Origin: Verrucomicrobiales bacterium
GTDB lineage: Bacteria; Verrucomicrobiota; Verrucomicrobiia; Verrucomicrobiales; DEV007
Length of the DNA stretch: 64,000 nt
NCBI GenBank assembly: GCA_030747955.1
Contig: JASLJT010000181.1
Location: 1,940 to 65,939 of the forward strand
Reading direction: 5' to 3'
Part shown: positions 9,295-50,024 of the stretch, in pieces
How the letters are laid out: each line of letters begins with the position of its first letter
Numbering within the stretch: position 1 is the first letter of the stretch
The notes under the pieces: generated by a model
The model's database searches: none
What the model was told of the DNA's origin: nothing
What the model saw: only the letters and a program-made list of their open reading frames with translations
Made by a program: the position numbers and the translations under genes

Positions 9295-10134
9295 ATGAAA
9301 TATTTAATTCTATCATTAGCAGGGTTAATCTTTCCCCTCTCTCAAACCAAGGCTCAGGCTCCAAAGCTAGAAGTTTCACCGATCCCAAAAGGAAAACTGA
9401 TGGCCTTTGCCCCTGCCTTTTCAAAATACATCAATGTATTCGGGGTCCACGTCTTTGCCACCAAACGGACTCCCGACTCAAAGATACTCCATGCCGCTTC
9501 AGTGCTTGCAGAATATCTAGACAATGATGAGAATGGAAAACCAGACAATCTGCAAGTCGTTGATGCTTTGATTTCTAGGGACGCCTACCTTGAAATCTTC
9601 GCAAACGAGCGCGAACTGGAAAGAGTGCACGGCAGGGGAAAACATTTCAAGGAAGGTTTTCACTATGGAATTTCACAGTTTGTTGAAGAAACCAATCCCG
9701 GAAATGGTAGATTCGATGCTACTCTCGAAGAAGTGTTCCACCTGATAACTCACCATGGATACGGGAATGCTTATCCAAGAATTTTTGGGCCCCGCTCAGG
9801 AACACAGATTGCAAAGTGTTTGGATTTAGCCCGTAAAGGACACTTCGTTGAAGTGCCAGAATCGTATCCGGAAGGAGCCTGGTTCACTTATGATGACGAG
9901 AGTTGCGAGTACGGCTGCATGGTCACGGAATATATCTATTGGGCCATGACTTCTATACTTGGTGCACAAAAATCCCTTCATAGGCAACGGGAAATTAAAC
10001 ACGAGTGGCGGCTTCCAACTCGTGAACTTGTTAGAAAGGGAGATCCTGCCGTTTTTAAATTATTGAATGAACCCAAGTATAAATTTCCAAAGGTCCTTCC
10101 TGATGGAAAATATAAGTTGAACGTATCAGATTAG
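9295..10134 (+). CDS. hypothetical secreted protein
   Basis: Signal peptide MKYLILSLAGLIFPLSQTKAQA. It starts 30 nt after the DUF1592 gene on the same strand. It contains LEEVFHLITHHGYG. I recognise no family. Confidence 0.6.
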   Translation: MKYLILSLAGLIFPLSQTKAQAPKLEVSPIPKGKLMAFAPAFSKYINVFGVHVFATKRTPDSKILHAASVLAEYLDNDENGKPDNLQVVDALISRDAYLEIFANERELERVHGRGKHFKEGFHYGISQFVEETNPGNGRFDATLEEVFHLITHHGYGNAYPRIFGPRSGTQIAKCLDLARKGHFVEVPESYPEGAWFTYDDESCEYGCMVTEYIYWAMTSILGAQKSLHRQREIKHEWRLPTRELVRKGDPAVFKLLNEPKYKFPKVLPDGKYKLNVSD

Positions 10135-19409: not shown

Positions 19410-20807
19410 ATGATTTCCCAACCATCAGATCGCCGATCTTTTCTCCGTTCCTTCGTCGCGGGGTCCAGCATGATGCCTGCCCTATTACGTAATATGGATG
19501 CGCTGTCAAACAGTATTGGTCCTTTGTCCGTAAAGAATCCTCACTTCCCCGCGAAGGCAAAGAATGTGATTTTTTTGTTCATGACTGGTGGGGTTTCCCA
19601 CATCGATACCTTTGATCCTAAGCCAAAACTAAAATCTGATGTGGGCAAAGAAATCAAGCTCGATCATCCTGAAATAGAAAACCGTGCGGGTTATGAAAAA
19701 ATATATCTGAAAGCACCACAATGGGAATTCTCTCCTCACGGACAATGCGGAACAGAAGTCAGTACATTGTTCCCGCACGTGGCACAATGCGTTGATGATA
19801 TAGCGCTCATTCGTTCTATGCACACTGACCATTCCAATCACTACAACGCTACTTTGGGAATGCACACCGGATCCTTTGCTTTCGCGAGGCCCAGTCTCGG
19901 TTCATGGGTAAGTTATGGACTCGGCACTGAAAACCAAAATCTACCCTCGTTCATTACCATTGCTCCGAAGCAGACCTATGCCGGAACACAAGTGTATGCG
20001 AGCGACTTTTTGCCTGGTGCCCATCAAGGCACTTTCCTTAGACCCAGTAAAGACCCTTTCAAAAATATTCGTTCCATAATTCCCCCATCACGCCAAGAGC
20101 TTGAGTTGGCCGCGCTTCAAAGATTAAACGAACGTCATCTAATTGCCCGTTCCGGTGATGCTGAGGCAGAAGCCAGAATAAAAAGTTTTGAAACAGCATT
20201 TGGCATGCAAATGGAAGTGCCTGAACTTTTCGATTTTTCAAAGGAATCGAACGCTACTCACAATCTTTATGGACTCAATAGAGGATCGACTGAAGGCTTT
20301 GGATGGCAGTGTCTTGCGGCTCGCCGACTCGTCGAGCGAGGCGTTCGTTTTGTGGAGCTCATTGATACTGGCTCTTCAGGAAATTGGGACTCTCACGGTA
20401 ACATGATGGACCATGAAAGACTCGCTAAGAATGTTGATCAACCAATCGCGGGGCTGCTTAAAGACCTTAAATCGCGTGGAATGCTTCAAGACACATTAGT
20501 TGTTTGGACTACCGAATTTGGAAGGACTCCTTTTAACAACAAAGCCGATGCTCTTGGCAGGGAACATCATAACTGGGCATTCAGTTCATGGATGGCCGGT
20601 GCCGGAATTAAGCCCGGAACGGTCCACGGATCGACCGATGAGTATGGTATCCGCCCGGACAAGGACCCGGTACATGTACATGATTTTCATGCCACGATCC
20701 TTCATCTTCTCGGACTAGATCATGAAAAGCTCACGTATAGACATGATGGAAGGGATTACCGACTTACCGACGTTTACGGAAATATCGTCACAGATATCAT
20801 GGCTTAA
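19410..20807 (+). CDS. DUF1501 protein, TAT leader
   Basis: SDRRSFLRSFVAGSS leader, IFLFMTGGVSHIDTFDPKP and TTEFGRTP..GREHH. It starts 3 nt after the upstream DUF1553 stop. Confidence 0.85.
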   Translation: MISQPSDRRSFLRSFVAGSSMMPALLRNMDALSNSIGPLSVKNPHFPAKAKNVIFLFMTGGVSHIDTFDPKPKLKSDVGKEIKLDHPEIENRAGYEKIYLKAPQWEFSPHGQCGTEVSTLFPHVAQCVDDIALIRSMHTDHSNHYNATLGMHTGSFAFARPSLGSWVSYGLGTENQNLPSFITIAPKQTYAGTQVYASDFLPGAHQGTFLRPSKDPFKNIRSIIPPSRQELELAALQRLNERHLIARSGDAEAEARIKSFETAFGMQMEVPELFDFSKESNATHNLYGLNRGSTEGFGWQCLAARRLVERGVRFVELIDTGSSGNWDSHGNMMDHERLAKNVDQPIAGLLKDLKSRGMLQDTLVVWTTEFGRTPFNNKADALGREHHNWAFSSWMAGAGIKPGTVHGSTDEYGIRPDKDPVHVHDFHATILHLLGLDHEKLTYRHDGRDYRLTDVYGNIVTDIMA

Positions 20808-24733: not shown

Positions 24734-24858
24734 GGATAATCTTAATAATTGTTCTATGAACGAAAATGCACGGTTCGGGCCCATCAGACAAGAGTATTTA
24801 ATGCTCTTTCTTTAAAGCACTGTTGTGTTGTTTGAATGTATTTGTTAGCGTTTTGGTG

Positions 24859-26103
24859 ATGACTTTTCCCGCTTTGCCGTACTTAGCCTTGATTTCTTTT
24901 CTCTTTTTAGCTGCTGACTTCAGTCCTGCTGAAGAAAAAATGCATTGGTTCAAGGGCAATACTCACACGCATTCATTATGGAGTGATGGAAATGATTTTC
25001 CGGAAATGATTGCTAAATTTTACAAAGATAATAATTACCATTTCCTGGTCCTGTCAGATCATAATATTCTTAGCAGGGGCGAAAAATGGATGAATGTGGG
25101 TGCAATTGAAAAGAGAAGAAAGGCGCTCGGGGTCCCAACATTAAAAAAATATATAAGTACCTTTGGTAAGGACTGGGTCGAATTGCGCGGAGAAGATAAA
25201 AAACAAGAAGTTCGACTAAGGACTCTAGAGGAAATCCGTCCCAAATTTGAACAGGAGGGAAACTTTATTTTTATCGAAGGAGAGGAAATCACCAATAGTT
25301 TTGGTAGATCTCCAGTCCATACGAACGGGATGAATCTGAAAGAACTCATTGTTCCAAAGAAAGGAACTTCGCTCCGTGACACAATGCGGAACAATATCAT
25401 TGCTGTAAGGGAGCAATCAAATCGCCTCAACAAACCGATGCTTTCTCACTTAAATCATCCAAACTTTGGATGGTCAATTACTGCTGAGGATCTTGCTCAT
25501 GTCTTGGAAGAAAAATTCTTCGAAGTATACAATGGTCATCCCGGAATCAATCATCTTGGAGACGCAAAGAGGCCCGGGGATGAAAAGATATGGGACATTG
25601 CAAATACCATACGCCTTGCAACGCTGAAGTCCGATCCACTCTATGGAATTTCCTCTGACGATTCGCACTACTATCATGGAGGAGATGTCAAACCTGGGAG
25701 GGGCTGGGTCATGGTTCAGTCTTCATCTCTTGAAGAGGATTCTATCGTAAGATCAATGGACTCTGGAAACTTTTACGGCTCGAGCGGTATACATTTCAAA
25801 CATCTTTTGAGGGACCAGAAAAAAGGAATTCTCGAATTTGAAATCGAAGCGGATACAGATGCAGAATATGTGACAACTATCATTGGAACCCGCAAAGGAA
25901 ATGAAAATAAACCGGATCTTGTCGGAGAAACCCTAGCAACCATTAAAGGAAATAAGGTCCAATATAAGCTCAAGGATAATGAGTGGTATTTTCGAGCCAC
26001 TGTCACCTCCAGTAAAGACCATCCTCGTCCATCCTTTACTGGACAAAAAGAACAGGCATGGACTCAGCCGATCTGGGATTCTTTAGCTATAAGAAAAAAG
26101 TGA
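24859..26103 (+). CDS. secreted PHP-domain (CehA/McbA-like) metallophosphoesterase
   Basis: WFKGNTHTHSLWSDGNDFPEMIAKFY..HFLVLSDHN is typical of the PHP fold. Start at ATG 24859; the track start 24823 is TTG. Confidence 0.65.
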   Translation: MTFPALPYLALISFLFLAADFSPAEEKMHWFKGNTHTHSLWSDGNDFPEMIAKFYKDNNYHFLVLSDHNILSRGEKWMNVGAIEKRRKALGVPTLKKYISTFGKDWVELRGEDKKQEVRLRTLEEIRPKFEQEGNFIFIEGEEITNSFGRSPVHTNGMNLKELIVPKKGTSLRDTMRNNIIAVREQSNRLNKPMLSHLNHPNFGWSITAEDLAHVLEEKFFEVYNGHPGINHLGDAKRPGDEKIWDIANTIRLATLKSDPLYGISSDDSHYYHGGDVKPGRGWVMVQSSSLEEDSIVRSMDSGNFYGSSGIHFKHLLRDQKKGILEFEIEADTDAEYVTTIIGTRKGNENKPDLVGETLATIKGNKVQYKLKDNEWYFRATVTSSKDHPRPSFTGQKEQAWTQPIWDSLAIRKK

Positions 26104-28951: not shown

Positions 28952-30046
28952 ATGCAGAATCATTACAATAAAGCTTTTAACAACATGATCAGAAAAACTC
29001 TCTCCGCTGCGCTTGCAGCTTTTTTTACTATATCCACTTTATCAGCCGCTGATACTCTTGTGCTCAAAGGAAAATCAGGCCCAGGCAAAGGAAAGCACGT
29101 CGTTATTGTGACTGGTGACGAAGAATATCGTTCCGAAGAATCTGGTCCGATGCTTGGCAAAATTCTTTCTCAAAAGCACGGATTTGACTGCACTGTGATA
29201 TTTTCTTGGACTGATAATTATATTGATCCCAATAACCAGAAAGGGCTTCGTGGACTCAAGGCTCTTGATAGTGCGGACCTAATGATAATTGGAACAAGGT
29301 TCCGTCAGCCTAACGCCGAAGAAGCTTCACATATTACCAAATTTCTTAATGCCGGAAAACCAGTCATTGGATTCAGAACCGCAACGCATGCTTTTAATGG
29401 TGGCAATAAGTTTGGAACGGGAAATGGTGCAATTGGGTTCGGCGCATTCGGGCGAAAGGTCCTCGGTGAACAATGGATCAGCCATCATGGTGGACATAAA
29501 AGAGAGGGTGCGCGGGGAGTCATTGAGAAAAAGAACAAGGACCATGCCGTTCTCAATGGCGTGTCCGATGTCTTTGCTCCTTCCGATGTTTATGGCGTAA
29601 GGAACCTGACCGAAGCAGATACCATATTATTGCGAGGCGCCGTTACAAAAACATTGGATCCAAAGTCAGAAAACATTTCGGGAGGAAAAAATGATCCTAT
29701 GCAAGCGCTCGCATGGCTCCACCCATACGTTGCTCCTGATGGAAAGACTAAGGGCAATTCATTCTGCACAACTGCTGGCGCTTCATGCGATTTTGTGAGC
29801 GAGGGGCTCCGTCGTATTGTCGTCAATGCTACATACCATCTCACAGGTTTAACAGTACCAGCGAAAGCCGATGTCGATTATGTGGATCCATTTTTTCCTA
29901 GTTTTTATGGTTTCATTAGAGACAAGAACTGGTTCAAAGGATTGGACATGCAGTCGGAGGATTATGGACTAGGCAAGACCCCACATGCGCCTGATCCTCC
30001 AGGAAGTCCTGCATGGCCTCACCGTCCCACTCCCAAAAAGGGTTAA
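28952..30046 (+). CDS. ThuA-like (class-I glutamine-amidotransferase-fold) secreted protein
   Basis: KHVVIVTGDEEYRSEESGPMLGKIL, ADLMIIGTRFR, AGKPVIGFRTATHAF and DHAVLNGVSDVF match the ThuA-like layout by eye. ATG 28985 (MIRKTLSAALAAFF..) is an alternative start. Confidence 0.45.
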   Translation: MQNHYNKAFNNMIRKTLSAALAAFFTISTLSAADTLVLKGKSGPGKGKHVVIVTGDEEYRSEESGPMLGKILSQKHGFDCTVIFSWTDNYIDPNNQKGLRGLKALDSADLMIIGTRFRQPNAEEASHITKFLNAGKPVIGFRTATHAFNGGNKFGTGNGAIGFGAFGRKVLGEQWISHHGGHKREGARGVIEKKNKDHAVLNGVSDVFAPSDVYGVRNLTEADTILLRGAVTKTLDPKSENISGGKNDPMQALAWLHPYVAPDGKTKGNSFCTTAGASCDFVSEGLRRIVVNATYHLTGLTVPAKADVDYVDPFFPSFYGFIRDKNWFKGLDMQSEDYGLGKTPHAPDPPGSPAWPHRPTPKKG

Positions 30047-30067: not shown

Positions 30068-31093
30068 TCAATTTAAATCCAAAAGAAACTCGATGTGGGC
30101 ATGCACTATTTGTCCCATCGTGGATGCTTTATCAAATACGGAGGATTTATAATGATCGGCTAACTCTGATCGGAGCTGTTCAACCTTTTCCGGAGACGAA
30201 AGTTTTTCTTCCCCCATTATTCTAAGAAGAGACCCTATCCGAAGTTCGGCACTTTTGTATCTTCGGGAAATGAGTGTTCTTTCCTCTTTCTGGTACTGTT
30301 CGATAGTTGCTTGATTTAATAAATTCATGACCATTTCAACGATCGGATAATTATCAGCAAAAAACTGTGCCAGATATATTTTACGGCGACCTTCGTATGA
30401 TTGTTGGTCAAAATCAATGGGCCTTACCCTGTACTGTACCTCTTCAAAGTCGGGAGTAACATCAACGACATAATTGACTGACCTCATGTCACCGAGCAAT
30501 CGTACAAAACAACGCTCGTTGAACTTCACAAATTCTTTAGCTACTCGGACTTCGTTAAGTCCATCACGCTGTAACCAGTCTCGCAAAAATACATTCCCAG
30601 GAAGACCTGCAATGTGTTCTTCTATCAATGTCCCACCATTGACAAGATAGTTGATTCTAGTCGGAGATAAAATATGCTCAAGCTCCAGACCATAGAGTCT
30701 AGACGCGTCTGCTACCTTCACATAATAGTGATCAAAGTTATCATTGTAGCGGTTAATGATACGGATTCTGAAGGGGCGCGAATTGCCAAAAACACCAAAA
30801 TCTATTCTTTCAACATCCAAATGCTTGGTCTTGTTTGAATCACCGCCCATTTTAAGATCAGCATAGATTTTAGTGAGCTTTGGTCTGAGTTCAGCCATTT
30901 CATCAGGCTTATACATTAAGGTCTGCCAATTCGTTTCGGATCCATCAGGAGATTCATACGGAATCGCTTCACTGAACCGATGAAGGTCATTGTATATTTT
31001 AGGTATAGTATCTAAGTGACGGCTGTGCTTGATAAGATAAGCCTTCAGTTCAGAACTTACAGGATACGCAGTTTTTTTCTTTGAAATTTCCAT
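30068..31093 (-). CDS. hypothetical cytoplasmic protein with RIO/Kdo-kinase-like (protein-kinase-like fold) motif order
   Basis: No signal peptide. Ordered motifs YYVK(Lys) - LELEH(Glu) - LIEEHIAG(hinge) - LLGDMRSVNYVV (compare HGDLSEYNILV) - IDFDQ (compare IDFPQ). Confidence 0.4.
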   Translation of the reverse strand: MEISKKKTAYPVSSELKAYLIKHSRHLDTIPKIYNDLHRFSEAIPYESPDGSETNWQTLMYKPDEMAELRPKLTKIYADLKMGGDSNKTKHLDVERIDFGVFGNSRPFRIRIINRYNDNFDHYYVKVADASRLYGLELEHILSPTRINYLVNGGTLIEEHIAGLPGNVFLRDWLQRDGLNEVRVAKEFVKFNERCFVRLLGDMRSVNYVVDVTPDFEEVQYRVRPIDFDQQSYEGRRKIYLAQFFADNYPIVEMVMNLLNQATIEQYQKEERTLISRRYKSAELRIGSLLRIMGEEKLSSPEKVEQLRSELADHYKSSVFDKASTMGQIVHAHIEFLLDLN

Positions 31094-31112: not shown

Positions 31113-31637
31113 TTATTGCTGCGGATCCTCTGATCCTTCCTTTTTATCTTTTGATTCTTTGGCCTGATCCATGCGTCCTTCAATCGCACGTTTAAGATAA
31201 GGCAAACGGTCCACTGTGATTGGAGCAAGTGCAACGAACACCTTGCCTCCCCCCTGACATTGTATTTCCAGAGTTTTCATGTCTTCAGTAACAAGTGCAT
31301 GATCAATTTCAGTCCAATAGATGACCTGAAGATTTTTACTGGGAAACCAGAAAGGAAATAATTCAATGCCCAGAGGCGTAAGAATAATAAACGCGTGCCT
31401 GACGCAATTCACTGCAACCCAAATACAAATTAAACTCAAACTGAACAATACAAGGGTAATTATAAGTTGAGTTGAAATTTCATTGATTGCCAGACCATTA
31501 AGGGTGGTATTCGAAAACCATATCCAAAATGTAATACACAAAAAAATTCCACCAAAAGCAACGAACGTCAGCCCTTGACGCGCGCGGGTAAAGCGAAGCT
31601 CCTTCTCTGGTTCGGTTATTTTGCGTGGTTTGCCCAA
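31113..31637 (-). CDS. hypothetical 2-TM membrane protein with PH-like C-terminal domain
   Basis: Two hydrophobic helices, then a ~70-aa soluble domain and an acidic tail. It ends 19 nt before the kinase-like gene on the same strand. The TTG start at 31637 is uncertain. Confidence 0.45.
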   Translation of the reverse strand: MGKPRKITEPEKELRFTRARQGLTFVAFGGIFLCITFWIWFSNTTLNGLAINEISTQLIITLVLFSLSLICIWVAVNCVRHAFIILTPLGIELFPFWFPSKNLQVIYWTEIDHALVTEDMKTLEIQCQGGGKVFVALAPITVDRLPYLKRAIEGRMDQAKESKDKKEGSEDPQQ

Positions 31638-36387: not shown

Positions 36388-37089
36388 ATGAGCGAAGAAA
36401 ATCCTCAAACCCCAGCACCAGAAGATAAATCATCTTCTGTTCCCTTAAAAAAAGAGACCACACGAGTGACTCTTAAAGCATCCGAGGGTGCAGCTCCGCC
36501 GCCGCCAGCGCCTGCGGCCCCTAAGCCTGCAGCTCCTGCACAAGCAACTCAACCATTAGCTCCTGCTCCTGCTCAACCTTCAGCAGCCAAAACAGTTCCA
36601 TTGAGTCCTGCACCAGCAGCTTCAAGCCCAGCAACACAATCCTCTCCACCTCAAGCGACTGTCAAACTACAACCATCTCAACCAGGTGCTGCAAGTACAC
36701 CGGGCGGTGTAGCTGCACCTCTTTCAACTGGTAAACTTTCTGCTAGCTTGGATGATGATGGTGAAGAGAGCTTCCTCAATCCACTCGCGTGGGCTTGCGT
36801 TGTCTTAGCTCTGGCCGTGCTACTGATAGAAGCTGCAAGTTCTCCGAGCTTGTCCCAACAAGATCCAAAAATGCCGGATTCAAAATCTTGGGGAATTCCC
36901 CACGATGATTATGACCGTCGGTACAATCCACAGGTAGACAATAAGGAAAACAAAGAAGCAAAAACTTTCAAGTTCACTAAGGAAGATGTGAACCGTATAG
37001 CTTCTCCTACGAATCTGTTTCCTGCCCAATATAAAAGAAGTTTACCCACTAAAGAGTATGATGCTTATAAGGGTGAACAGAACAATTAA
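36388..37089 (+). CDS. hypothetical Pro/Ala-rich single-pass membrane protein
   Basis: The N-terminal ~120 aa are low-complexity P/A/S/Q-rich. One TM helix (LAWACVVLALAVLLIEAA), then a Lys/Asp-rich tail. Confidence 0.55.
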   Translation: MSEENPQTPAPEDKSSSVPLKKETTRVTLKASEGAAPPPPAPAAPKPAAPAQATQPLAPAPAQPSAAKTVPLSPAPAASSPATQSSPPQATVKLQPSQPGAASTPGGVAAPLSTGKLSASLDDDGEESFLNPLAWACVVLALAVLLIEAASSPSLSQQDPKMPDSKSWGIPHDDYDRRYNPQVDNKENKEAKTFKFTKEDVNRIASPTNLFPAQYKRSLPTKEYDAYKGEQNN

Positions 37090-37583: not shown

Positions 37584-37687
37584 TACAGGTATTATTATCT
37601 GCCTAAGAATAAAGCGATTAGTCTGTGCTTGGGCAGGTTTTTCCTTCCCAAGACCCAAATACTTGCTTAGCTGAAATCAGAGATCCT

Positions 37688-39001
37688 ATGTCTATTCCAT
37701 ACCAACGCACTCTTGCCTCAAGCGCTTCGCTCGAAGGCACTTCGCTTCACACGGGTGAAAAAGTGACACTGACCATGAAACCGGCTCCTGCCAATCATGG
37801 CATTGTGTTCCGTCGTATCGATTTAGATGATAAGCCCTTCATCCCTGCGATCGTTGACAACGTACAACAAGTTGAGCGGGCAACGACCTTAGCGGTCGGC
37901 TCAGTCAAAGTCCATACGGTAGAACATGTGATAAGCGCATTGGCTGGAATGGGCATTGATAATGCAATCATTGAGATGGATGCCAATGAACCCCCGATCG
38001 GCGACGGTTCATCGGCTCCATACGTTAACTGTATACGTGAAGCTGGGACAGAAGAACAGGACCAGTTGGCAAGCGTGTTCGAAATCCGTGAACCCATTCA
38101 TATGGAAAATGAAAATGGTTCCATCATTACCATTCTACCTAGTAAGACTTTCCGTGTGTCCTGCACGCACGCTGGTGAGGGAGGAAGGATGACCCAGTAT
38201 TACTCAACTGAAATCACTCCTGAAATTTATGAAAAAGAAATTGCTCCTGCCCGCACATTTGTATTTTACGAAGATGTTGAGCCTTTGTTGGAAAAAGGAC
38301 TAATCAAAGGTGGGTCACTAGAAAATGCTGTTGTTATAAGAGACGAATCCATACTGAGTAAAGAGCCTCTCCGGTTCGAAGAAGAATTCGCAAGACATAA
38401 AATTCTCGACGTGATCGGGGATCTGATGCTCTCCGGTAAGCGCATCATGGGACATGTACTCTGCGTAAAACCAGGACATGGGCCAAATACCCAAATGGCT
38501 GTCCAATTAAAAAAGGCATTTGGTGCGGTCATGTCAATGACGCCTCGAGTTAACATTCCTACGGGTGAGGGCGCCTTGGACATTAATGAGGTAATGAAAA
38601 TTTTGCCTCACCGTTATCCTTTCCTCTTGCTGGATAGGATTATCAAATTTGAAGGCGATAACAAGTGCACGGGAATCAAATCTGTAACAATAAATGAACC
38701 ATTCTTTCAGGGTCACTTTCCAAATCATCCCGTAATGCCTGGAGTATTACAATTAGAAGCGATGGCACAACTCGCAAGCATCATGCTACTCCGAAAACCT
38801 GAAAATCAGGGTAAGATAGGTTATTTTTTGAGCGCCGATAAAGTAAAATTCCGTAAACCGGTAATGCCTGGTGATACTCTTTTTATTGAAGGTGAGGCCT
38901 TAAAAATTAAAAGTAGTGTTGCCCAGGCAAAGTGCCGTTGCTTTGTCAATGAAGCTTTAGTTTCCGAAGCGGAACTCAAATTCAGTTTGATTTCGAGCTA
39001 A
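37688..39001 (+). CDS. lpxC-fabZ: bifunctional UDP-3-O-acyl-GlcNAc deacetylase / 3-hydroxyacyl-ACP dehydratase (LpxC-FabZ fusion)
   Basis: The N-terminal half is LpxC-like (GIVFRRIDL, TVEHVISALAGMGIDN, HKILDVIGDL, GHGPN). The C-terminal half is FabZ-like (LPHRYPFLLLDRI, NEPFFQGHFPNHPVMPGVL). Start at ATG 37688. Confidence 0.9.
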   Translation: MSIPYQRTLASSASLEGTSLHTGEKVTLTMKPAPANHGIVFRRIDLDDKPFIPAIVDNVQQVERATTLAVGSVKVHTVEHVISALAGMGIDNAIIEMDANEPPIGDGSSAPYVNCIREAGTEEQDQLASVFEIREPIHMENENGSIITILPSKTFRVSCTHAGEGGRMTQYYSTEITPEIYEKEIAPARTFVFYEDVEPLLEKGLIKGGSLENAVVIRDESILSKEPLRFEEEFARHKILDVIGDLMLSGKRIMGHVLCVKPGHGPNTQMAVQLKKAFGAVMSMTPRVNIPTGEGALDINEVMKILPHRYPFLLLDRIIKFEGDNKCTGIKSVTINEPFFQGHFPNHPVMPGVLQLEAMAQLASIMLLRKPENQGKIGYFLSADKVKFRKPVMPGDTLFIEGEALKIKSSVAQAKCRCFVNEALVSEAELKFSLISS

Positions 39002-39076: not shown

Positions 39077-39865
39077 GTGCCGAATGTTGACATTCATCCC
39101 ACTGCCATAATAGATCCGGGAGCGATAATTGGTGATGAGACCAAAATCGGTCCATATTGTGTCATTAGAGAAGGTGTGAAAATCGGACGTGGTTGTGTTC
39201 TTCACGATCATATTTCTATTGAAGGGTCTACCACTATAGGTGATCAGAATACCTTTCATGCTCACTCTGTGATCGGAGGCCAAAGCCAAGACCTAAAATA
39301 TTCAGGTGAGCCAACGTACTTAGAAATTGGCAATCAAAATACTTTCCGAGAATTTGTTACTGTTAATAGGGGCACGGACCCCGGTAGCAAAACTCAAGTC
39401 GGAAGTCATGGGACTTTTTTGGCTTATTCGCACATCGCTCATGATTGTGTTGTCGGTGACCATGTTATTTTTTCCAATAACGGAACCCTTGCAGGCCATG
39501 TCCAGATGGGTGACTATGCAATTCTTGGTGGATTAACTGCCGTTCACCAATTCTGTCGTATCGGTTCTCATGCAATTACGGGCGGTTGTTCAAAAATTGT
39601 TCAGGACGTTCCCCCATTTATGATCGCTGATGGTAACCCTGCGGAAATTCGAAGCATTAACGCTATTGGCTTGCAGCGTCGTGGATTTGCTGATGGAGAC
39701 ATACGATCTCTCAAAGAGGCTTATAAGACTATTTTCTTGAGAAAAATGACAGTCTCAGATGCATTGCAAGAACTGAAAAATAGTTCTGCTGAGCTGGCCG
39801 GTGAACATCCTGTGAATATCCTAATCGCATTCATAGAATCCAGCGAGAGAGGCATCATTCGCTAA
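39077..39865 (+). CDS. lpxA: acyl-ACP--UDP-N-acetylglucosamine O-acyltransferase
   Basis: IHPTAIIDPGAIIGDETKIGPYCVI hexapeptide repeats and the LpxA C-terminal helical domain (NAIGLQRRGF). GTG start. Confidence 0.9.
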   Translation: MPNVDIHPTAIIDPGAIIGDETKIGPYCVIREGVKIGRGCVLHDHISIEGSTTIGDQNTFHAHSVIGGQSQDLKYSGEPTYLEIGNQNTFREFVTVNRGTDPGSKTQVGSHGTFLAYSHIAHDCVVGDHVIFSNNGTLAGHVQMGDYAILGGLTAVHQFCRIGSHAITGGCSKIVQDVPPFMIADGNPAEIRSINAIGLQRRGFADGDIRSLKEAYKTIFLRKMTVSDALQELKNSSAELAGEHPVNILIAFIESSERGIIR

Positions 39866-40783: not shown

Positions 40784-41021
40784 TGATTCTCCTGACATCG
40801 CCCAAAGAATGTTACTTAATGGCAATGCATGCAAGGAATTGAATATTTGTTTTAAGGCGCTGCTTTGATGTCATTCGTAACTTCATTTTTACTGATCTCC
40901 GCCATACTCATAGATTATCAGCCCCGATAAGCACGAACTTGTGGCTATTGCTTGTATTTACCCTGTTTTACTGGTATTTTCTCATCAATACCTCCTCTCA
41001 AAAATATACCCCCCATTTTCC

Positions 41022-44000
41022 ATGCATTTTTCTTTGCTCACCAATTTTGGTGTTACTTTACTCGTTACTTTAATTTTAGCGGTTACTTCAGTCGCTGAAC
41101 GCGTCACTTTTAGTGAGATTCATTACTCTCCAAAAGATGATAAGCCTGAATATATAGAGCTATTTAATAATTCCGGTTCCGCTGTTGATTTTGCGTGCTG
41201 GGAATTTTCGGATGGTATCGATTATAAATTTCCTGACTTCTCCGCATCATCTCCTCAACAAACATTTATGTGCGCTTTTGAGCGCGTATTAGTCACCAAT
41301 GTTGATGAGAAAACATTCCGCGCAAATTATACAGTGCCTGGGGATGTTAAAATATTTGGTCCTTACACTGGTTCTTTGAGTAATGCAGGAGAAGCCCTAG
41401 AGCTGAGAGATAAAAATGGCGTCATGGTTTGCCGTGTCAGATACAATGATCGGGGAACGTGGCCTGTCGCTGCTGATGGTGCTGGTCATTCATTGCGTTT
41501 AATCAACAAGTATCTTAGTTGCTCAAAATTTGATAATTGGGCTGCGAGTGCATCTCCGGGGGGCACACCAGGAGTGGCCCCTGCAGGCTCGGACGGGCAA
41601 CGTTTTTCAAATCCATCAGTGGATCTTGCAGCGTCTTTTCCGATCGTCAGTCTTGGAGATGAATGGAAATATGATGATTCTGGCAATGATCTTGGTAGCG
41701 GATGGAAGGAGTCAGGATATGACGATTCATCATGGTCCAGTGGTGGTGGTATCTTTGGTCGAGAAACTGCTTCACGGATAGCAGCGATGCCTGAACCCAA
41801 GATTCAAACCGAATGGAAAGAGCGCATTTCAACTCATTATATGAGAAAACAATTCGAATGGGCCGGCGGAACAACCTCTGCTTTCTTTTCAATGGATGCG
41901 ATTCTTGATGACGGACTGGTTATTTATTTGAACGGGAAAGAAGTCGGGCGCCATCGCATGCCTGCTGGAGAAATTAACTATCAGACTAATGCATCTTCAG
42001 TGCCTTCATCACTTGAGGCAAAGATCGAACAAGGAATCATTGAATCTGACATAAGTGGTATGCTGATAAATGGCACTAATACACTAGCTGTAGAGGTTCA
42101 TAATAATAGCCGTAACAGCTCGGACCTTGTCTTTGGTCCAATCATTCGGGTTTCAGGTGCTGGGGGTGCTGCCATTATTAATGAAGTAAAGGTCGGCGAT
42201 GCTGGTAATGGATTTATCGAATTTTATAATTCCTCTGACAAAGAAATCAATTTGCAGGGATATCATCTTAGTAATGATATCAATGATCTTAAAAAGTTTA
42301 CTATAGGAGCTAATGCCACTATTTCCGCCTCAGGTTTCACGACCATTGGCTTTAAAGAGGCAGGATTCACTGTGGGTGGTAAAACAAAAATTTATCTAAG
42401 TTCTCCTGGTGCCGTTACAACACTTGATGCGTTCGAGGCTACGCTCGGAGCTGATGGCCGTTCTGTTGGAAGAAAACCAGCCGGTGGATCTGACTGGTTT
42501 GTTTTTACTGATCCGACCCCAGGTGCCGCTAATATAGACAGTAGTGATCTTGCGGGCTTGCTTGATCTCAACGAGGTCCACTTTGATGCAGAGGGAAATG
42601 TGGATTGGATTGAACTTTCTGCTGATAGTGATGCTGCTATTCCGGTTGAAGGCTTGTCTTTAACTTCCAAAATTGATTTTTCAGATGCTGTCCCTTTGTC
42701 GGGTTCTGTTTCGGGCAATTCTCCAAAGAGCTGGGATGTCAATTTTTCATCTGAAAACACAAATGAAATTCGGGTCTATCTAATCACCTCAGGGGGCACT
42801 GTGCTAGCAGCAGACTCTTTCCGTGTTCGCGATGGTGTAGAAAGCTATCAAAGTGATCCGCCTGGAAAAGAATGGTTCCGGGGCCCTGGTCATACGAAAA
42901 ATGCAGCTAACGAGCCGGTCAGGGAAACGAGCATCATCATCAACGAAATAATGTCCGATCCTCCAAGTGATGAAAGGAACGGTGAATTTATAGAGCTGTA
43001 TAATAGGGGCAATGAGACCGTTGATCTTAGTGGCTGGGAATTTGTTGAGGGAATTAGTTTTACTTTCCCGGCCGGCACAAGCATTGGGGCTGGGGCTCAT
43101 TTGGTAGTTGCTGCTAACAAAGATTGGATCAAATCAAATTATGGCGATGTTCCGGTAATAGGAAACTATGAAAACAACTTGGCTAATGAAGGTGAACTTC
43201 TGAGGCTCGAGGACAGTAACGGAAATTTGGCTGATGAAGTGAACTACAAAGTTGGTGGAGATTGGCCACAATGGACAAATGGCGATGGAAGTAGTATGGA
43301 ACTCATTCATCCCTTTGCTGATAATGATCTTCCTAGCTCTTGGAAAGATAGTGATGAGAGTCAGAAAACAAGTTTTGAGGAATACAGCTTCACGAGCATC
43401 TATCACCACCTTTCAGTTCCGCGTCTTGATAAAGAATTGTGGGTCCATCTTGTCGGAGACGCACATGTCATTCTGAAAGATATAGAGCTTCTCAGGGGGG
43501 GTCAGGATATCATGCAAAACGCTGCTAAGCGTACTACGAACGGTCGAGGTGAAACTGGATGGTTGCCACAGGGAACGCATCATGCCAGCTATTTTGAAAA
43601 TGGTGAATTTCACCTGATTTCTGATGGGCACGGTGACAATCGAGCAAACAAAGCTGAAATTCAGGTCAATGAATTAACGCGCAATGATGAGCTGACTCTT
43701 AAGTTCAAGGCCCGTTGGGTTAAAGGAAAGCCCAGGGTCATTTTCAAAACATTTGAAGACAGTTTTGTTTCTACTTATAGGTTACCTATTCCTAATGATC
43801 TTGGCAGTCCTGGTAAACCAAATGGATCATTACTTTCTTCAGCGCCGCCCGCCTTAGGCTATTTATCACACAATCCAGCAGTCCCCACTAGTAAGGAGCC
43901 TGTCACTGTATCTGCTAAGGTGTCCGGAGCCGCAGATTCAGTCAAACTTATGTATCGTCAGGACTCAGCAACCAATGACAGGGACTGGAAATCTCTTACT

Positions 44001-47000
44001 ATGAATGACAACGGTGCCGGTGCAGACTCTCGTGCCGGTGATGGAATATGGTCAGCCCAAATTTTAGATCAGGGAGTAGATAATAGGATCGTGCAATTCT
44101 ATGTCCTTGCAAAAAATGGCGCACAAGAAGTCACTCTTCCTTCCCGTGCACCTGAAATACCAGCAATGTACGTTGTCGATAATTCTGAAATTAAGACTGA
44201 TGTAACAAGTTATCGGGTCGTGATTTCAGATTATGATCGCCGTTCAATGACGAGCGGAAGCAGCGCAGCATGGGAATGGAAATTTCCAAACCTTTCTAAC
44301 AATTATAAAAAGATGACCCTCATCGTTGATGAAAAAGAAATATTTTATAATTGTGAGGTCCGATCTTCCGGAAGCCCTTGGCATGCTGGAAGCAGATCAA
44401 ATTTCACACAACGAGGTAAATTTAAAATGCCTTTAGACAAACGTCTCCGCGGCCTTGCAAAAATTGCTTGGGACAATACCCCGGCAGCAGAGGGTGCTGC
44501 TAATATATTTAATAACAAAGTTCCTAGATACATGCTTTATCTTATGGGCCATGAAGTGAACGAAAACGAATTTGCTTCAATGATTGAGAACGGAGGAAAT
44601 CCTAGACACTCAGTAGAATTTTTTGAACCAGTCGGTAATGATTTTCTGGAAAGAAACTTTGGGGATGATGGTCCGCAAGGAGAGCTTTACCGACAAGATG
44701 ATATATTTTTCTTCGATGATAATTACAGCAAAGACCAAATAACCAGTCGGTACTGGTGGTACGCTGGTGATGACTGGCCGGGTCCAGGAAGATATCACAG
44801 TCAGTGGCTGAAGCGTTCGAGGGAAACAGATTATGATTATACAGCTTTAATCAATCTATTAAAAACCGTAAAGAATTCTAACGGGTACACTGAAGAGGAA
44901 ATAAATCGTCTCGTTGACGCGAGAAGAATATGCATGATGGCTGCCGTGAGAGGTTACATCGGGGACTGGGATTCTTTCACATTAAGACGCCCCAAGAACA
45001 GTTTCTTTTACAGGGGCCCAGGAGATGGAAAATTTCATTTCTTCTTCCATGACTCTGACTTGGCTTTTCAAAACACTGGAGAAATGATCTTTAGTGGAGG
45101 AAATGAATTCTCAGCTTGGCTTCGTAAGCCTTATAACAGGCGTATTTTTCGATACTATCTAACAGAAATATTGGATAAATTTCAGGCCAAAGGGCCACGT
45201 GTGGATGCCTGGTTCGACTGTGAACAGGCAGTTTCCACCACCTACAATCCAAACCAGAATAAATATACGGGTTGGGACAGTGGCAGGCGCAATCGTATTT
45301 TGAGTGAACTTTCAAATGGTCATACCAGAAAACTTGATGTCGACCCAATTGCCAATACATCTAATGATAATATCACAATTACCGGAGAAGCTGGATATCG
45401 GGTCTGGGAAGTTGCCGTAGAAAACCACCCCGAGGGTCAATTCAGCTGGATCGATGAAACAACATGGAAAATTGAAGGAATTTCCTTAAGAAGCGGATCA
45501 AACTCTTTCCGTGTCATCGCATTGGATGATGATGGTAAGGCTGCGTTTGGAGAAGAAACAGATACTGTCACGGTAAACAAAACAAATAATGCAGCTCCGC
45601 ACATAGTCCTTGATTTGAATCCTGGTTCTGCAAACGTCGAGCTGGCCAGCACCTTGGTCCTTGATGCCAGTGAAAGTTACGACCCAGAAGGTGATGCCCT
45701 TTCATTTGTATGGAGCGCTTCGTCAGAGAATGTCGTTTTAACATCAGATGGCCCGACTGCCGTTGTCAGTTTTGCGACTCCTGGACTATATGAAATATCT
45801 TTAGACGTAACAGATCAGAAAGATAAAAAATCCACAATCTCAAGGCAAATAACTGTATTTGGGCCTAAGGGCTTTTCAGCATTTAATGATGTTTGGATTG
45901 CCCCATGGATCCAAGAACATGACATAGAACAAAAAGACAATTACTCTCCCGGGGCCTGGTGGTCCCTCAGTGAAGCACTAGGGAAATTAGTTATTCAATT
46001 GCCGGATGATAAGTCCTATCCGTTAGGGCTGCCTCCGGGCATTGCTGATTCAAAAAGTTATATCCAGTTAGATCATGCCTGGCAATATAGTGATGAAAAC
46101 ATCGATTATATGTCCGAATTTGCTAAAGTAGGCTTTGATGATTCCTCTTGGAAAACAGGAAAGGGTATGTTTGGTAAAGATTCCGGCACGATACCAGAGC
46201 CAGGGATCAATACTCCACTGCAAAACAATTCGGCAGAGAACCTAGTAAGTTATTACTTTAGAACAGAATTTGAATTCTCTGATGATCCGGTCGGTTCAGA
46301 AATTGATCTCCGCGCTGTCATAGATGATGGAGCTAGATTTTGGCTCAACGGCATTGAAATTGATCGTGTCCGGTTACCTAATGGTCAGATCGAGCATGGA
46401 ACCGGAGCAAGCAGTAATACTGCTTCTAGAGATGAAAAACAATCACGGCAAGTGGGTATTTACGATGGTACCGGATCATTAGTAAATGGGACAAATGTAC
46501 TCGCCGTGGATCTTCATAACCGTAATTCTAGAAGCTCTGACTATCTCTTTGCTGCCGAGCTTGATATCACAGCTCAACCGGTCACGGAAGGTGGTAATCT
46601 CGATGGAACCACGCACCCCTGGCTTAAACGTGATCTACCCACTCATTCCAATTGGGTATTACAAACTGATCTTGAACTATGGAATCTCCAATTTGATGAA
46701 TTTATGGCGGGCTTAATAATCGAAGTTGATGAATCTGCCAAGCGATCTCGTTATGCTTTCGGTTATAAAGACGGAAGGCATTTAGCCGTCACCAAAATTA
46801 CCTCTTCTGGGAGCGCTGGAACAGTACATAGCGTTCCATTTTCTTCATCTGATGATGTTGTTATAAGAATACGCCGCGAAGAGGATCGTCTCTTTTTCGA
46901 AAGATCTCCCGAATCTGGAGTTTGGGAAATTATTCATCGCCTCGACCTTCAGACGAATTGGGAATCAGTGCATGGTGGAATATTTACAAGCTCAGAAGCC

Positions 47001-47948
47001 GCCCGTGGATTGAAGGTGAGTTTTGACTATATGATGCTCATTTCTCCTGATGAATCTTCACCTTCTAGTGGAGACATAGTTGTTTCAGAAGTAATGTATA
47101 ATCCATTAGAGGGTTCTGATTATGAATTTATTGAACTTTATAATGCGGGAGGAAATTCTGTCGATCTGACTGGTTTTTCTCTCCCCCAAGGTCAACCCGT
47201 GAATGAATTTATCTTTCCTGAAAGATCAATAGGTGCTGGTGAATATCTTCTAATTGTGGCTGATCGTGAATCTTTTTTAAGTAAATATGGTCAGCAGATT
47301 AATGCCCAAATAGTAGGCAGTTGGTCTGGTGGTAAGTTAAATAATAATGGCGAGGAAATTGTACTTTTGGATAGGGATGGAAATCTTGTCACGAGCTTTG
47401 TCTATGACAACAACGGGCCCTGGCCAACTCAGCCTGACGAAGATGGTTATTCTCTTGTATTATCCAATCCATTGTTGGGAAATACAAGTGATGGCTCTTT
47501 GTGGACATCAAGTTCTGCAATTGGAGGATCACCAGGAAAGGCTGAAACAATCAACGAAGCGTTTGCATCTTGGATGGAAGCCAGGGGAGAAACTAATCCA
47601 TTAGACGTTAAGGGAGGCGATTTACTCAATAATCTTCTTACGTATGCTTTTGGAATGGATCTTATTGGTGAAAACCCTCAAAGCGGAATTCCTTCATTGG
47701 ATATAGTCGAACTAGAAGGAAGACAGTACTTTGCCCTTGAATATCGGGAAAGAAAAGATGCGCCAGGTATCGAGTTTATCATTGAAATGAGTAATGATTT
47801 AATCACTTGGTCACAGGACAAAAACAACACAATTGAAATTTCTAGAGTGGCGGATGGTGCTGGTGCTGAACGAATCCTTTTACGCTCTAGGGATGCTATA
47901 AATGATAAGGATTTAGGGTTTTTGCGTGTGCGTGTTCTTTCGCCCTGA
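41022..47948 (+). CDS. giant (2,308 aa) secreted multidomain protein: lamin-tail domains x4-5, CotH kinase-like domain, PKD-like and lectin-like beta-sandwiches
   Basis: Signal/TM MHFSLLTNFGVTLLVTLILAV. LTD signatures: SEIHYSP..EYIELFN, IINEIMSDPP..EFIELYNRG, VVSEVMYNP..EFIELYNAG. CotH-like central region: NNYKKMTLIVDEKEIFYNCEVRSSGSPWH ... FFHDSDLAF. PKD-like LDASESYDPEGDALSFVW. A duplicated W.Y..E...W..GKG.FG...DDG...LNG sandwich. Confidence 0.8.
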   Translation: MHFSLLTNFGVTLLVTLILAVTSVAERVTFSEIHYSPKDDKPEYIELFNNSGSAVDFACWEFSDGIDYKFPDFSASSPQQTFMCAFERVLVTNVDEKTFRANYTVPGDVKIFGPYTGSLSNAGEALELRDKNGVMVCRVRYNDRGTWPVAADGAGHSLRLINKYLSCSKFDNWAASASPGGTPGVAPAGSDGQRFSNPSVDLAASFPIVSLGDEWKYDDSGNDLGSGWKESGYDDSSWSSGGGIFGRETASRIAAMPEPKIQTEWKERISTHYMRKQFEWAGGTTSAFFSMDAILDDGLVIYLNGKEVGRHRMPAGEINYQTNASSVPSSLEAKIEQGIIESDISGMLINGTNTLAVEVHNNSRNSSDLVFGPIIRVSGAGGAAIINEVKVGDAGNGFIEFYNSSDKEINLQGYHLSNDINDLKKFTIGANATISASGFTTIGFKEAGFTVGGKTKIYLSSPGAVTTLDAFEATLGADGRSVGRKPAGGSDWFVFTDPTPGAANIDSSDLAGLLDLNEVHFDAEGNVDWIELSADSDAAIPVEGLSLTSKIDFSDAVPLSGSVSGNSPKSWDVNFSSENTNEIRVYLITSGGTVLAADSFRVRDGVESYQSDPPGKEWFRGPGHTKNAANEPVRETSIIINEIMSDPPSDERNGEFIELYNRGNETVDLSGWEFVEGISFTFPAGTSIGAGAHLVVAANKDWIKSNYGDVPVIGNYENNLANEGELLRLEDSNGNLADEVNYKVGGDWPQWTNGDGSSMELIHPFADNDLPSSWKDSDESQKTSFEEYSFTSIYHHLSVPRLDKELWVHLVGDAHVILKDIELLRGGQDIMQNAAKRTTNGRGETGWLPQGTHHASYFENGEFHLISDGHGDNRANKAEIQVNELTRNDELTLKFKARWVKGKPRVIFKTFEDSFVSTYRLPIPNDLGSPGKPNGSLLSSAPPALGYLSHNPAVPTSKEPVTVSAKVSGAADSVKLMYRQDSATNDRDWKSLTMNDNGAGADSRAGDGIWSAQILDQGVDNRIVQFYVLAKNGAQEVTLPSRAPEIPAMYVVDNSEIKTDVTSYRVVISDYDRRSMTSGSSAAWEWKFPNLSNNYKKMTLIVDEKEIFYNCEVRSSGSPWHAGSRSNFTQRGKFKMPLDKRLRGLAKIAWDNTPAAEGAANIFNNKVPRYMLYLMGHEVNENEFASMIENGGNPRHSVEFFEPVGNDFLERNFGDDGPQGELYRQDDIFFFDDNYSKDQITSRYWWYAGDDWPGPGRYHSQWLKRSRETDYDYTALINLLKTVKNSNGYTEEEINRLVDARRICMMAAVRGYIGDWDSFTLRRPKNSFFYRGPGDGKFHFFFHDSDLAFQNTGEMIFSGGNEFSAWLRKPYNRRIFRYYLTEILDKFQAKGPRVDAWFDCEQAVSTTYNPNQNKYTGWDSGRRNRILSELSNGHTRKLDVDPIANTSNDNITITGEAGYRVWEVAVENHPEGQFSWIDETTWKIEGISLRSGSNSFRVIALDDDGKAAFGEETDTVTVNKTNNAAPHIVLDLNPGSANVELASTLVLDASESYDPEGDALSFVWSASSENVVLTSDGPTAVVSFATPGLYEISLDVTDQKDKKSTISRQITVFGPKGFSAFNDVWIAPWIQEHDIEQKDNYSPGAWWSLSEALGKLVIQLPDDKSYPLGLPPGIADSKSYIQLDHAWQYSDENIDYMSEFAKVGFDDSSWKTGKGMFGKDSGTIPEPGINTPLQNNSAENLVSYYFRTEFEFSDDPVGSEIDLRAVIDDGARFWLNGIEIDRVRLPNGQIEHGTGASSNTASRDEKQSRQVGIYDGTGSLVNGTNVLAVDLHNRNSRSSDYLFAAELDITAQPVTEGGNLDGTTHPWLKRDLPTHSNWVLQTDLELWNLQFDEFMAGLIIEVDESAKRSRYAFGYKDGRHLAVTKITSSGSAGTVHSVPFSSSDDVVIRIRREEDRLFFERSPESGVWEIIHRLDLQTNWESVHGGIFTSSEAARGLKVSFDYMMLISPDESSPSSGDIVVSEVMYNPLEGSDYEFIELYNAGGNSVDLTGFSLPQGQPVNEFIFPERSIGAGEYLLIVADRESFLSKYGQQINAQIVGSWSGGKLNNNGEEIVLLDRDGNLVTSFVYDNNGPWPTQPDEDGYSLVLSNPLLGNTSDGSLWTSSSAIGGSPGKAETINEAFASWMEARGETNPLDVKGGDLLNNLLTYAFGMDLIGENPQSGIPSLDIVELEGRQYFALEYRERKDAPGIEFIIEMSNDLITWSQDKNNTIEISRVADGAGAERILLRSRDAINDKDLGFLRVRVLSP

Positions 47949-49246: not shown

Positions 49247-50017
49247 ATGATAATAGCTAGAGGACTCGTTGCTTTATTTCTCATTCCATTAGTTGGGTTG
49301 CTCCATTTTCTTTTTGCTACTCAGTTTGAAATTTATGAGCAGCGACCCGTGTGGGCAGCTGTTGTTATTCTTGCTTCATTGATTGTTCTTGCCAGGCTAT
49401 TAATCAAAGCTAGCAAAAATAGAAAAACTCTCTTTTTGCTAAATCTGATAGCTTGGTGCATGGCTCTTTTACTTGTTTGGTGGGTTGAAGATTTCACTCA
49501 TTATCCCGCGTTAGATACAAGCTACAAATTGGGTCAGAAAATTAATTGGTCTGACAAAGAACAACTGCAGGACAATCAGGGGCGTCCATTTGATATAGGG
49601 TCTCAACTTAATCAAGCAGATCAAACACTACTTATTTTTTACAGGGGTCACTGGTGACCATACTGTGTTGCTGAGCTCGTGAAGCTAGAAAACAAAATAG
49701 AAGAACTTAACTCGATGGGAATACAGGTCATAGCAATCTGCAAAGGGACTGCTCAAGATTCTCAAAGAACAAAAAATAAAACCAAAGGATTCTTTTCTTT
49801 TGTTTCAGATCCTAGCGGATCATTCATTGATAGTCTTGGATTATTAGATGAGGGAGGAAACCCGCTTACGGGTGAAGACACTGCACGAATTGGTAAAATG
49901 TTAGTCGATAAAAAAGCGGAGATATTCTGGTTTAGATTCACAGAAAATAATAGAGTTAGAATAGCCTCAACGGAGCTAATTTCGCAAATAGAGCAAGTTA
50001 TAAAAAACCGTAAATGA
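49247..50017 (+). CDS. membrane-anchored PRX_like2/AhpC-TSA (redoxin) family protein with in-frame TGA at the redox Cys position; candidate selenoprotein (UxxC)
   Basis: Track ORFs 49247..49657 and 49679..50017 share one frame. They are separated only by TGA (49655-49657) and 7 sense codons. The joined sequence reads LLIFYRGHW-[TGA]-PYCVAELVKL..GIQVIAIC, matching the FYRGxWCPxC redoxin motif. The N-terminus has ~3 TM helices. Confidence 0.6.
49668..49690 (+). promoter_or_regulatory. candidate bacterial SECIS-like hairpin
   Basis: Hand fold: UU(G)CU(G)AGCU-CGUGA-AGCUAGAA, 8 bp with two single-G bulges. The apical loop contains GU and starts 20 nt after the UGA. Confidence 0.35.
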
Positions 50018-50024
50018 CTTAATA

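Follow-up and report, generated by a model that had tools for sequence, protein, structure and literature searches.

The stretch analyzed here, a 64-kb piece of a Verrucomicrobiales contig (JASLJT010000181.1) that we call the window, lists two consecutive open reading frames (ORFs) that very probably belong together. Judged by its sequence and relatives, 49247..50017 appears to be one gene for a 256-residue integral-membrane selenoprotein, whose internal UGA is decoded as selenocysteine (Sec). We favor Sec decoding because every ortholog carries the TGA, selection continues past it, Sec and Cys alternate at this position among homologs, and a hairpin is present in the TGA forms only. These same observations support the proposal, made in an earlier note on this DNA, that the locus is a Sec-decoded gene and not a pseudogene.

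One reading frame interrupted by a single TGA

The frame runs from an ATG at 49247 to a stop TGA at 50015-50017, and its sole internal stop is the TGA at 49655-49657. As the earlier note described, and as both the window sequence and the ORF list bear out, this codon is all that separates two ORFs of a common frame, 49247..49657 (136 aa) and 49679..50017 (112 aa, with a GTG start). Translation across the TGA yields ...QTLLIFYRGHW-U-PYCVAELVKLENK..., which reads ...FYRGHW-U-PYCVAEL... in the immediate surroundings of the Sec residue, U137. The note had also held that the downstream ORF lacks a real start and that its GTG is internal. This is correct: the GTG is the codon for Val145 and lies in the apical loop of the hairpin described below.

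The read-through protein matches two Pfam families over residues 106-223, across the TGA: AhpC-TSA (PF00578, E 4.7e-15, 56.1 bits, cut-off 26) and Redoxin (PF08534, E 7.3e-11). ResA, Asp f3 and BCP are among its sequence matches in the PDB. In these alignments the TGA column coincides with the first Cys of the ResA WCxxC motif and with the Thr of the peroxiredoxin TxxC motif, while Cys140 falls on the peroxidatic Cys. The Pfam matches and the ResA alignment agree with the earlier claim that the TGA stands at the first Cys of a CxxC-type redoxin motif.

A systematic scan of the window for other ORF pairs joined by a TGA gave no second credible case. One pair on the + strand, 16794..19406 (PSCyt2/PSD1) and 19410..20807 (DUF1501), does share a frame across a TGA. 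We rejected it as a selenoprotein and regard its TGA as an ordinary stop, since the downstream gene starts with an ATG of its own and encodes a twin-arginine signal, MISQPSDRRSFL.

The TGA and the frame beyond it are conserved in marine Verrucomicrobiota

Orthologs were found by exact look-up of the N-terminal product and by scans of species-representative genomes and metagenomes. Their sources are independent of one another and comprise an NCBI metagenome-assembled genome (MAG), Logan, JGI, Tara and ENA records, and two GTDB species representatives. TGA occupies codon 137 in 13/13 of these orthologs, all from marine Verrucomicrobiota and 10 of them distinct at the nucleotide level. All 13 are 771 nt long with zero indels, at protein identities from 99% down to 57%. 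The exact N-terminal product is called in the NCBI MAG GCA_036133695.1 and in one Logan assembly; the DNA of both shows few differences from the window, mostly synonymous, and keeps the TGA. In GCA_036133695.1 the true stop is TAA rather than TGA, with the internal TGA unchanged. The two GTDB species representatives are the Akkermansiaceae MAG SI034_bin91 (JABGYE01, 86% identity) and the Verrucomicrobiales MAG UWMA-0292 (DUBC01, 71%), and contigs from JGI, Tara and ENA supply orthologs down to the lower end of the range.

In divergent pairs, the ratio of nonsynonymous to synonymous substitution rates (dN/dS) is 0.16-0.26 after the TGA, compared to 0.12-0.28 before it. The downstream half is therefore under the same in-frame purifying selection as the upstream half. 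The surroundings are also retained. Upstream, tRNA-His and rnc keep their places, and the convergent downstream neighbor is mnmG (GIDA family, by Pfam) in locus L001 and a 626-aa ORF in the same place and orientation in L025. The selenoprotein gene and mnmG end 7 nt apart in the window (50015-50027), and no terminator-like hairpin was detected between them.

Gene callers split the gene in every public assembly examined, labeling its redoxin half a truncated AhpC/TSA protein and its membrane half a hypothetical protein. A widespread, mostly selenium-dependent membrane redoxin subfamily is therefore nearly invisible in protein databases.

Sec and Cys forms in a wider family

We used the half of the protein beyond the TGA as the query for an exhaustive HMMER search, with representatives taken from 50%-identity clusters at E <= 1e-3. 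This search returned 83 representatives, 66 of which are fragments of 74-132 aa that start within ~35 residues after the motif. Many of these begin 'MELVQLQK...', and some begin directly after the TGA residue ('MVCRAGLVKL' and 'MCVAELVRL', for example). We inspected the DNA of eight of the representatives, and in all eight cases an ORF for three hydrophobic helices lies upstream and terminates with a TGA at the same column, within the motif (F/L)(Y/F/N)RGxW-TGA-(P/M)xC. This upstream ORF measures 130-136 aa in full; in L032 and L034 a contig end truncates it. These eight distant Sec homologs are 23-32% identical to the window protein. One public protein, P0010 (246 aa; L029 177-917, Logan SRR18502801), has Trp at this column. 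That residue is a TGA translated in the public gene call, apparently with genetic code 4, and the seeming 'W-form' is, by its DNA, really a Sec form.

Full-length Cys forms with the motif FYRGxWCPxC account for 10 representatives, eight of them with N-termini that have several transmembrane segments, and two representatives have Ser at the column. Sequences with Cys there are L007-L017 together with P0031, P0046, P0057, P0064, P0066, P0071 and P0078, and MAGs of deltaproteobacteria, Binatia and alphaproteobacteria contain additional Cys forms (FFRGHWCPYCVAEL). Across the family R133, G134, W136, C140, L144, W228, R236 and R238 are invariant, and P34 in the first loop of the membrane domain nearly so. 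A domain of three transmembrane helices, a UxxC redoxin domain and a C-terminal NYRVRP signature together mark a widespread subfamily in which, going by the codon at the motif, Sec forms predominate among the representatives found.

The comparisons with homologs that the earlier note had proposed support its reading. Conservation does continue past the stop, with the coding frame intact and dN/dS in the range given above. Both states occur at the column, TGA in 21 sequences and Cys in others. The resequencing to TGT or TGC, or the frameshift, that might have undone the note's reading is not seen, as the TGA is identical across independent assemblies and there are no indels.

Separately, a word-indexed protein search with the read-through sequence returned two distant Cys homologs only. 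It missed the window's 136-aa N-terminal product and the verrucomicrobial ortholog fragments, even though the collection contains that product, as the exact look-up demonstrates.

A hairpin in register with the UGA

The hairpin of the window begins 14 nt past the UGA, and its apical loop contains G49679-U49680. The stem, as found in this lineage, consists of four Watson-Crick pairs, AGCU/AGCU (49674-77 with 49683-86), plus a U.G pair. The pattern of synonymous change in the orthologs is consistent with constraint on this RNA: in codons 138-152, 7/12 synonymous sites are invariant, compared to 26/99 elsewhere (Fisher p = 0.029), and the variable third positions fall in the spacer and the internal loop, while those in the stems and apical loop are invariant. 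GTG, the Val145 codon, does not vary either, since it makes up the apical loop.

The distant Sec forms keep the hairpin in precisely this register, and there it is much stronger, at -8.6 to -16.6 kcal/mol for 48 nt. With the U of UGA as nucleotide 1, the stem is made of nucleotides 18-24 and 28-34, and the apical nucleotides 25-27 read G(U/G)N; a typical example is GGAGCUG-GUG-CAGCUCC. Sec forms pair at 5-8 of the 8 positions, whereas the 11 Cys-form genes pair at 3-4 that are not contiguous. Over 15 Sec-form sequences, 84.8% of cells in the alignment are paired, versus 20-46% when the 3' partners are slid. Three pairs show compensatory changes, including C-G to U-A in L033, by two synonymous changes, and G-C to A-U in L031, and the covariation score of this alignment was reached by none of 500 shuffles.

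The protein follows the RNA in this segment. In Sec forms (L026, L029-L035) the stem codons spell E-L-(V/G)-Q-L, with the Val or Gly codon as the apical loop, while only E-L..L is retained in the Cys forms; it therefore seems that the RNA signal shapes, and so constrains, the protein motif in Sec forms. The window lineage has E-L-V-K-L instead (GAG CUC GUG AAG CUN), having lost the closing G-C pair, which leaves a C-GUG-A loop. The same loop is found in L035, there with an 8-bp stem.

Taken as a whole, these comparisons make the hairpin at 49672-49688 the likely Sec insertion sequence (SECIS) of the gene. Like bacterial SECIS elements of the E. coli fdhF type and the bSECISearch consensus, it lies shortly after the UGA within the coding sequence, and its small apical loop has a conserved G (G-U in this case). 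The conserved guanosine in a small apical loop has been stressed as a hallmark of bacterial SECIS elements (PMC1088965, PMC2398784). The candidate of the window lineage, which is known from sequence, differs from these elements in its very short stem and low stability; some genuine SECIS elements do fall outside the consensus model (PMC9312934).

Two other pairings were considered. An upstream hairpin that includes the UGA, GGUCAC/GUGACC, was rejected, as it is not conserved in the orthologs. A possible lower stem, UGUU 49666-69 with AACA 49691-94, shows no covariation, is broken in L024 and L025, and is out of register in the distant homologs.

Fold and topology of the predicted protein

The N-terminal part of the protein has three predicted transmembrane helices (Table 1), and these hydrophobic segments recur in every ortholog. 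Its first loop carries the conserved motif (F/G)xY(E/Q)xxP, and its second loop is rich in Lys and Arg. This second loop, between helices 2 and 3, holds 3-5 Lys/Arg and 0-1 acidic residues, while loop 1 and the stretch that follows helix 3 range from neutral to acidic. With Lys and Arg concentrated in loop 2, the positive-inside rule therefore puts the N-terminus in the cytoplasm and the redoxin domain in the periplasm, which the latter probably faces.

The AlphaFold2 model of the homolog P0010, which is a confident one (mean predicted local distance difference test score, pLDDT, 88.7; predicted template modeling score, pTM, 0.76), consists of three long helices, a linker and a thioredoxin-fold domain. 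The solved structures nearest to the redoxin domain of this model are PrxQ/BCP peroxiredoxins, with 3hjp Bcp4 at a template modeling (TM) score of 0.86 and a root-mean-square deviation of 2.1 Å. U137 would occupy the Thr position of TxxC and, simultaneously, the nucleophile position of a thioredoxin-type CxxC.

Table 1. Features assigned to the selenoprotein locus, in window coordinates.
Feature	Position	Strand	Description
Predicted complete selenoprotein gene	49247..50017	+	256 codons with Sec as codon 137, plus true stop TGA at 50015-17; 771-nt frame kept in 13 sequences
N-terminal membrane domain, aa 1-85	49247..49501	+	Three hydrophobic helices at ~aa 5-24, 35-53 and 61-80, from hydropathy and charge in five orthologs; homologous in distant Sec forms
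AhpC-TSA/Redoxin domain (thioredoxin fold, PrxQ-like), aa 106-223	49562..49915	+	Spans the TGA
UGA predicted to be read as selenocysteine, U137	49655..49657	+	First residue of the U-P-Y-C redox motif; TGA in 13 verrucomicrobial and 8 distant homologs, Cys in others
TGT, Cys140	49664..49666	+	Resolving/partner Cys of UxxC; family-invariant; aligned with the peroxidatic Cys of the Asp f3 peroxiredoxin
Possible lower stem, weak	49666..49694	+	UGUU/AACA; in minimum-free-energy and RNAalifold structures
SECIS-like hairpin	49672..49688	+	Stem 49672-78 / 49682-88; apical GUG 49679-81 between unpaired C and A
Spurious 'second ORF'	49679..50017	+	C-terminal half of one protein; GTG is Val145, a false start; same split by public gene callers

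Weighing the alternatives

Several observations weigh against Sec decoding or against details of the picture drawn above. Neither the 64-kb window nor any of the fetched loci yielded a selA, selB, selD or tRNA-Sec gene, with other parts of the genome lying outside the search; the look consisted of tRNA scans of the window and 14 loci, which gave tRNA-His only, and of Pfam searches on ~44 window ORFs. The hairpin itself has a mixed record. The earlier note had placed it at 49668..49690, where a bacterial SECIS is expected, and a hairpin is indeed present there with comparative support. Its energy of -5.7 kcal/mol, however, is no better than that of shuffled sequences by RNAfold (z +0.9 over 61 nt, -0.2 over 46 nt). 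RNAalifold gave no covariation on the verrucomicrobial set, and a search of Rfam brought up nothing of SECIS type, either at the gathering score or at E <= 10. What argues for the hairpin is comparison among homologs, and this only once the distant Sec forms are added; energy alone is uninformative. That covariation test used related sequences in a coding region, where the protein motif ELVQL could give part of the signal. As for the protein, we infer its topology from charge counts only, and the AlphaFold2 model depicts a homolog that is 34% identical to the half of the window protein beyond the TGA and has Trp in place of Sec, not the window protein itself.

The UGA could instead be translated as a standard amino acid (Trp, Gly or Cys), through reassignment or near-cognate suppression and without Sec machinery. 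Reassignment of UGA to Trp is known in two verrucomicrobial ciliate endosymbionts (PMC13462651), and the public call of P0010 puts Trp at a homologous TGA. However, the 19,394 codons of the 42 long ORFs in the window include 317 TGG and a single in-frame TGA, the one at 49655-57, and 10 of these 42 ORFs terminate with TGA, the selenoprotein gene itself among them. The window is typical of a large, free-living genome of the Planctomycetes-Verrucomicrobia-Chlamydiae (PVC) group, not of a 0.16-Mb endosymbiont. Homologs have Cys at this column and never Trp in a true TGG form, and plain suppression would leave a hairpin specific to the TGA forms unexplained. We therefore consider this explanation very unlikely.

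A slightly fainter chance attaches to the idea that two polypeptides are made, perhaps as a split redoxin, with the UGA terminating a 136-aa membrane protein and the C-terminal half initiating at GTG 49679 or at some other internal start. Gene callers predict exactly these products, and GTG 49679 is invariant, an invariance that the apical loop of the hairpin already explains. Such a break would cut through the thioredoxin fold at its active site and cost the protein its first redox residue, whereas the Cys-form homologs are single chains. The alternative start Met157 is not conserved, being Leu in L024 and L025, and the called starts of distant homologs lie at different residues. Moreover, the TGA column alternates only with Cys and, rarely, with Ser.

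Finally, a pseudogene or a sequencing or assembly error, for which one could cite that TGA is one base from TGT and TGC and thus a simple nonsense mutation away, has practically no probability left and stands refuted by the comparative sequence data: the same purifying selection downstream excludes it, with dN/dS ~0.2 there and a frame free of indels over dS > 1, and the same TGA recurs in 13 sequences that stem from independent samples and assemblers, as well as in 8 distant homologs.

Relation to known selenoproteins and redoxins

With Sec decoding as the preferred reading, the gene belongs to a class of bacterial selenoproteins that has been catalogued since 2005-2008. 'Prx-like' UxxC proteins have been recognized as abundant, mostly marine predicted bacterial selenoproteins since the Sargasso Sea (PMC1088965) and Global Ocean Sampling (GOS; PMC2398784) studies, and the W-U-P-Y-C motif of the window fits the definition of this family (PMC1088965, PMC9312934). 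The window protein shares with the Prx-like and 'Prx-like 1' selenoproteins (PF00578, UxxC/UxxU) the Pfam domain, a UxxC in the same context (YRGHWUPYC) and a marine habitat. The motif 'GHWUP' occurs 30 times in the GOS sequence supplement. One 'Prx-like 1' read, JCVI_READ_1095515485517, is 39% identical over the whole redoxin domain (E 1e-24), including the C-terminal N(Y/W)RVRP signature, which is NWRVRP in the read, and the supplement also lists a transmembrane-anchored 'FFRGHWUPYCVAEL' read. The earlier note had taken a three-helix anchor fused to a Sec redoxin for an undescribed architecture. That view does not hold: the subfamily is widespread, and members of it were already filed under 'Prx-like 1' UxxC proteins in the 2008 GOS set. 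Neither that study, where the word 'transmembrane' occurs 0 times (PMC2398784), nor the Sargasso Sea paper describes a membrane domain. To the GOS and Sargasso Sea descriptions we add the conserved domain of three transmembrane helices, the predominance of Sec forms, the in-register hairpin encoded by ELVQL, and the presence of the family in marine Verrucomicrobiota.

The protein reaches the cut-off of no NCBIfam model. The best is NF040769, SelL-related redox protein, at 36 bits versus 120 (relatives score 35-49). SelL itself is a eukaryotic protein with a UxxU motif. It and the NF040769 proteins, which are of the PRX_like2 type, resemble the window protein in having a thioredoxin-like dithiol or selenol motif within a Prx-like fold, and SelL has been called 'a Prx-like protein' (PMC2398784). 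By score, however, the window protein is not a member of this group, and the NF040769 profile has no membrane domain.

PrxQ/BCP peroxiredoxins provide the closest solved fold to the P0010 model, and their peroxidatic Cys aligns with Cys140. They differ in that the Thr of TxxC is replaced by Sec in the window protein; the resemblance in fold is that of the homolog model only. Their models score below cut-off (NF006960, 23.8 versus 140; NF053650, 16 versus 260).

The ResA/TlpA/CcmG (DsbE) proteins are similar in another respect. ResA is the best sequence match in the PDB, with its WCPxC aligned residue for residue with W-U-P-Y-C, and these proteins also combine an N-terminal membrane anchor with a redox domain that is predicted to lie outside the cytoplasm. 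In contrast to the conserved three-helix domain of the window family, theirs is a single anchor helix. In addition, the structural neighbors are peroxiredoxins and not TlpA-like proteins, no cytochrome-maturation genes surround the locus, and the corresponding models again stay below cut-off (TIGR00385, 17.7 versus 123; NF002854, 16.3 versus 170; NF041202, 18.1 versus 210).

Proposed mechanism and significance

In our proposed mechanism, the ribosome would read UGA 49655-57 as Sec, with the hairpin at 49672-49688 recruiting SelB.GTP.Sec-tRNA(Sec) as bacterial SECIS elements do; dependence on SelB is presumed by analogy. The product would be held in the membrane by its three N-terminal helices, with a cytoplasmic N-terminus and a periplasmic PrxQ-like domain whose active site is W-U137-P-Y-C140. 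Following the chemistry of the family, the U137 selenolate may attack an oxidized substrate, either a disulfide or sulfenate or a peroxide, after which a U137-C140 selenenylsulfide would form and a reductant would recycle the enzyme. We regard such a selenenylsulfide redox cycle as the most likely mechanism.

More speculatively, the three-helix domain, with its invariant loop-1 Pro and its (F/G)xY(E/Q)xxP motif, might be a functional partner of the redoxin domain and not a mere anchor. The family could then be a new, predominantly selenium-dependent membrane redox enzyme that acts on membrane-proximal or lipid peroxides or serves as a periplasmic electron relay, and the verrucomicrobial UGA could be decoded through a minimal 4-bp SECIS that is largely recognized by its sequence. 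We think this extended proposal unlikely.

If decoded as we propose, the gene indicates that abundant marine Verrucomicrobiota use selenocysteine, a subject on which our literature searches found nothing relevant. It would also place a Sec active site at the membrane, probably on its periplasmic face. The in-register hairpin in the E-L-V-Q-L codons provides an example of an RNA signal constraining a protein motif and gives a simple signature for re-annotation of the family. Current understanding of Sec decoding and of Prx-like selenoproteins is left unchanged.

Genomic context

The remainder of the window has the look of a region from a large PVC-type genome: it carries PSCyt/PSD/DUF1501 and sulfatase-like genes, and one ORF encodes an LTD/CotH protein of 2335 aa. 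Pfam gave no hit at E <= 1e-5 for six ORFs of 174-426 aa (9295..10134, 24823..26103, 28952..30046, 30068..31093, 31113..31637 and 36388..37089); they sit among the PSCyt/PSD/DUF1501 genes and genes for 3-keto-disaccharide hydrolases. LpxC (E 3.9e-95) and a FabA/FabZ-like dehydratase domain (E 9.3e-32) are encoded together in one ORF at 37625..39001 (+), after which comes lpxA at 39077..39865. The 2335-aa ORF, at 40941..47948 (+), contains four lamin-tail domains, a CotH kinase-like region and a PKD domain, and directly after it come tRNA-His, rnc and the selenoprotein gene.

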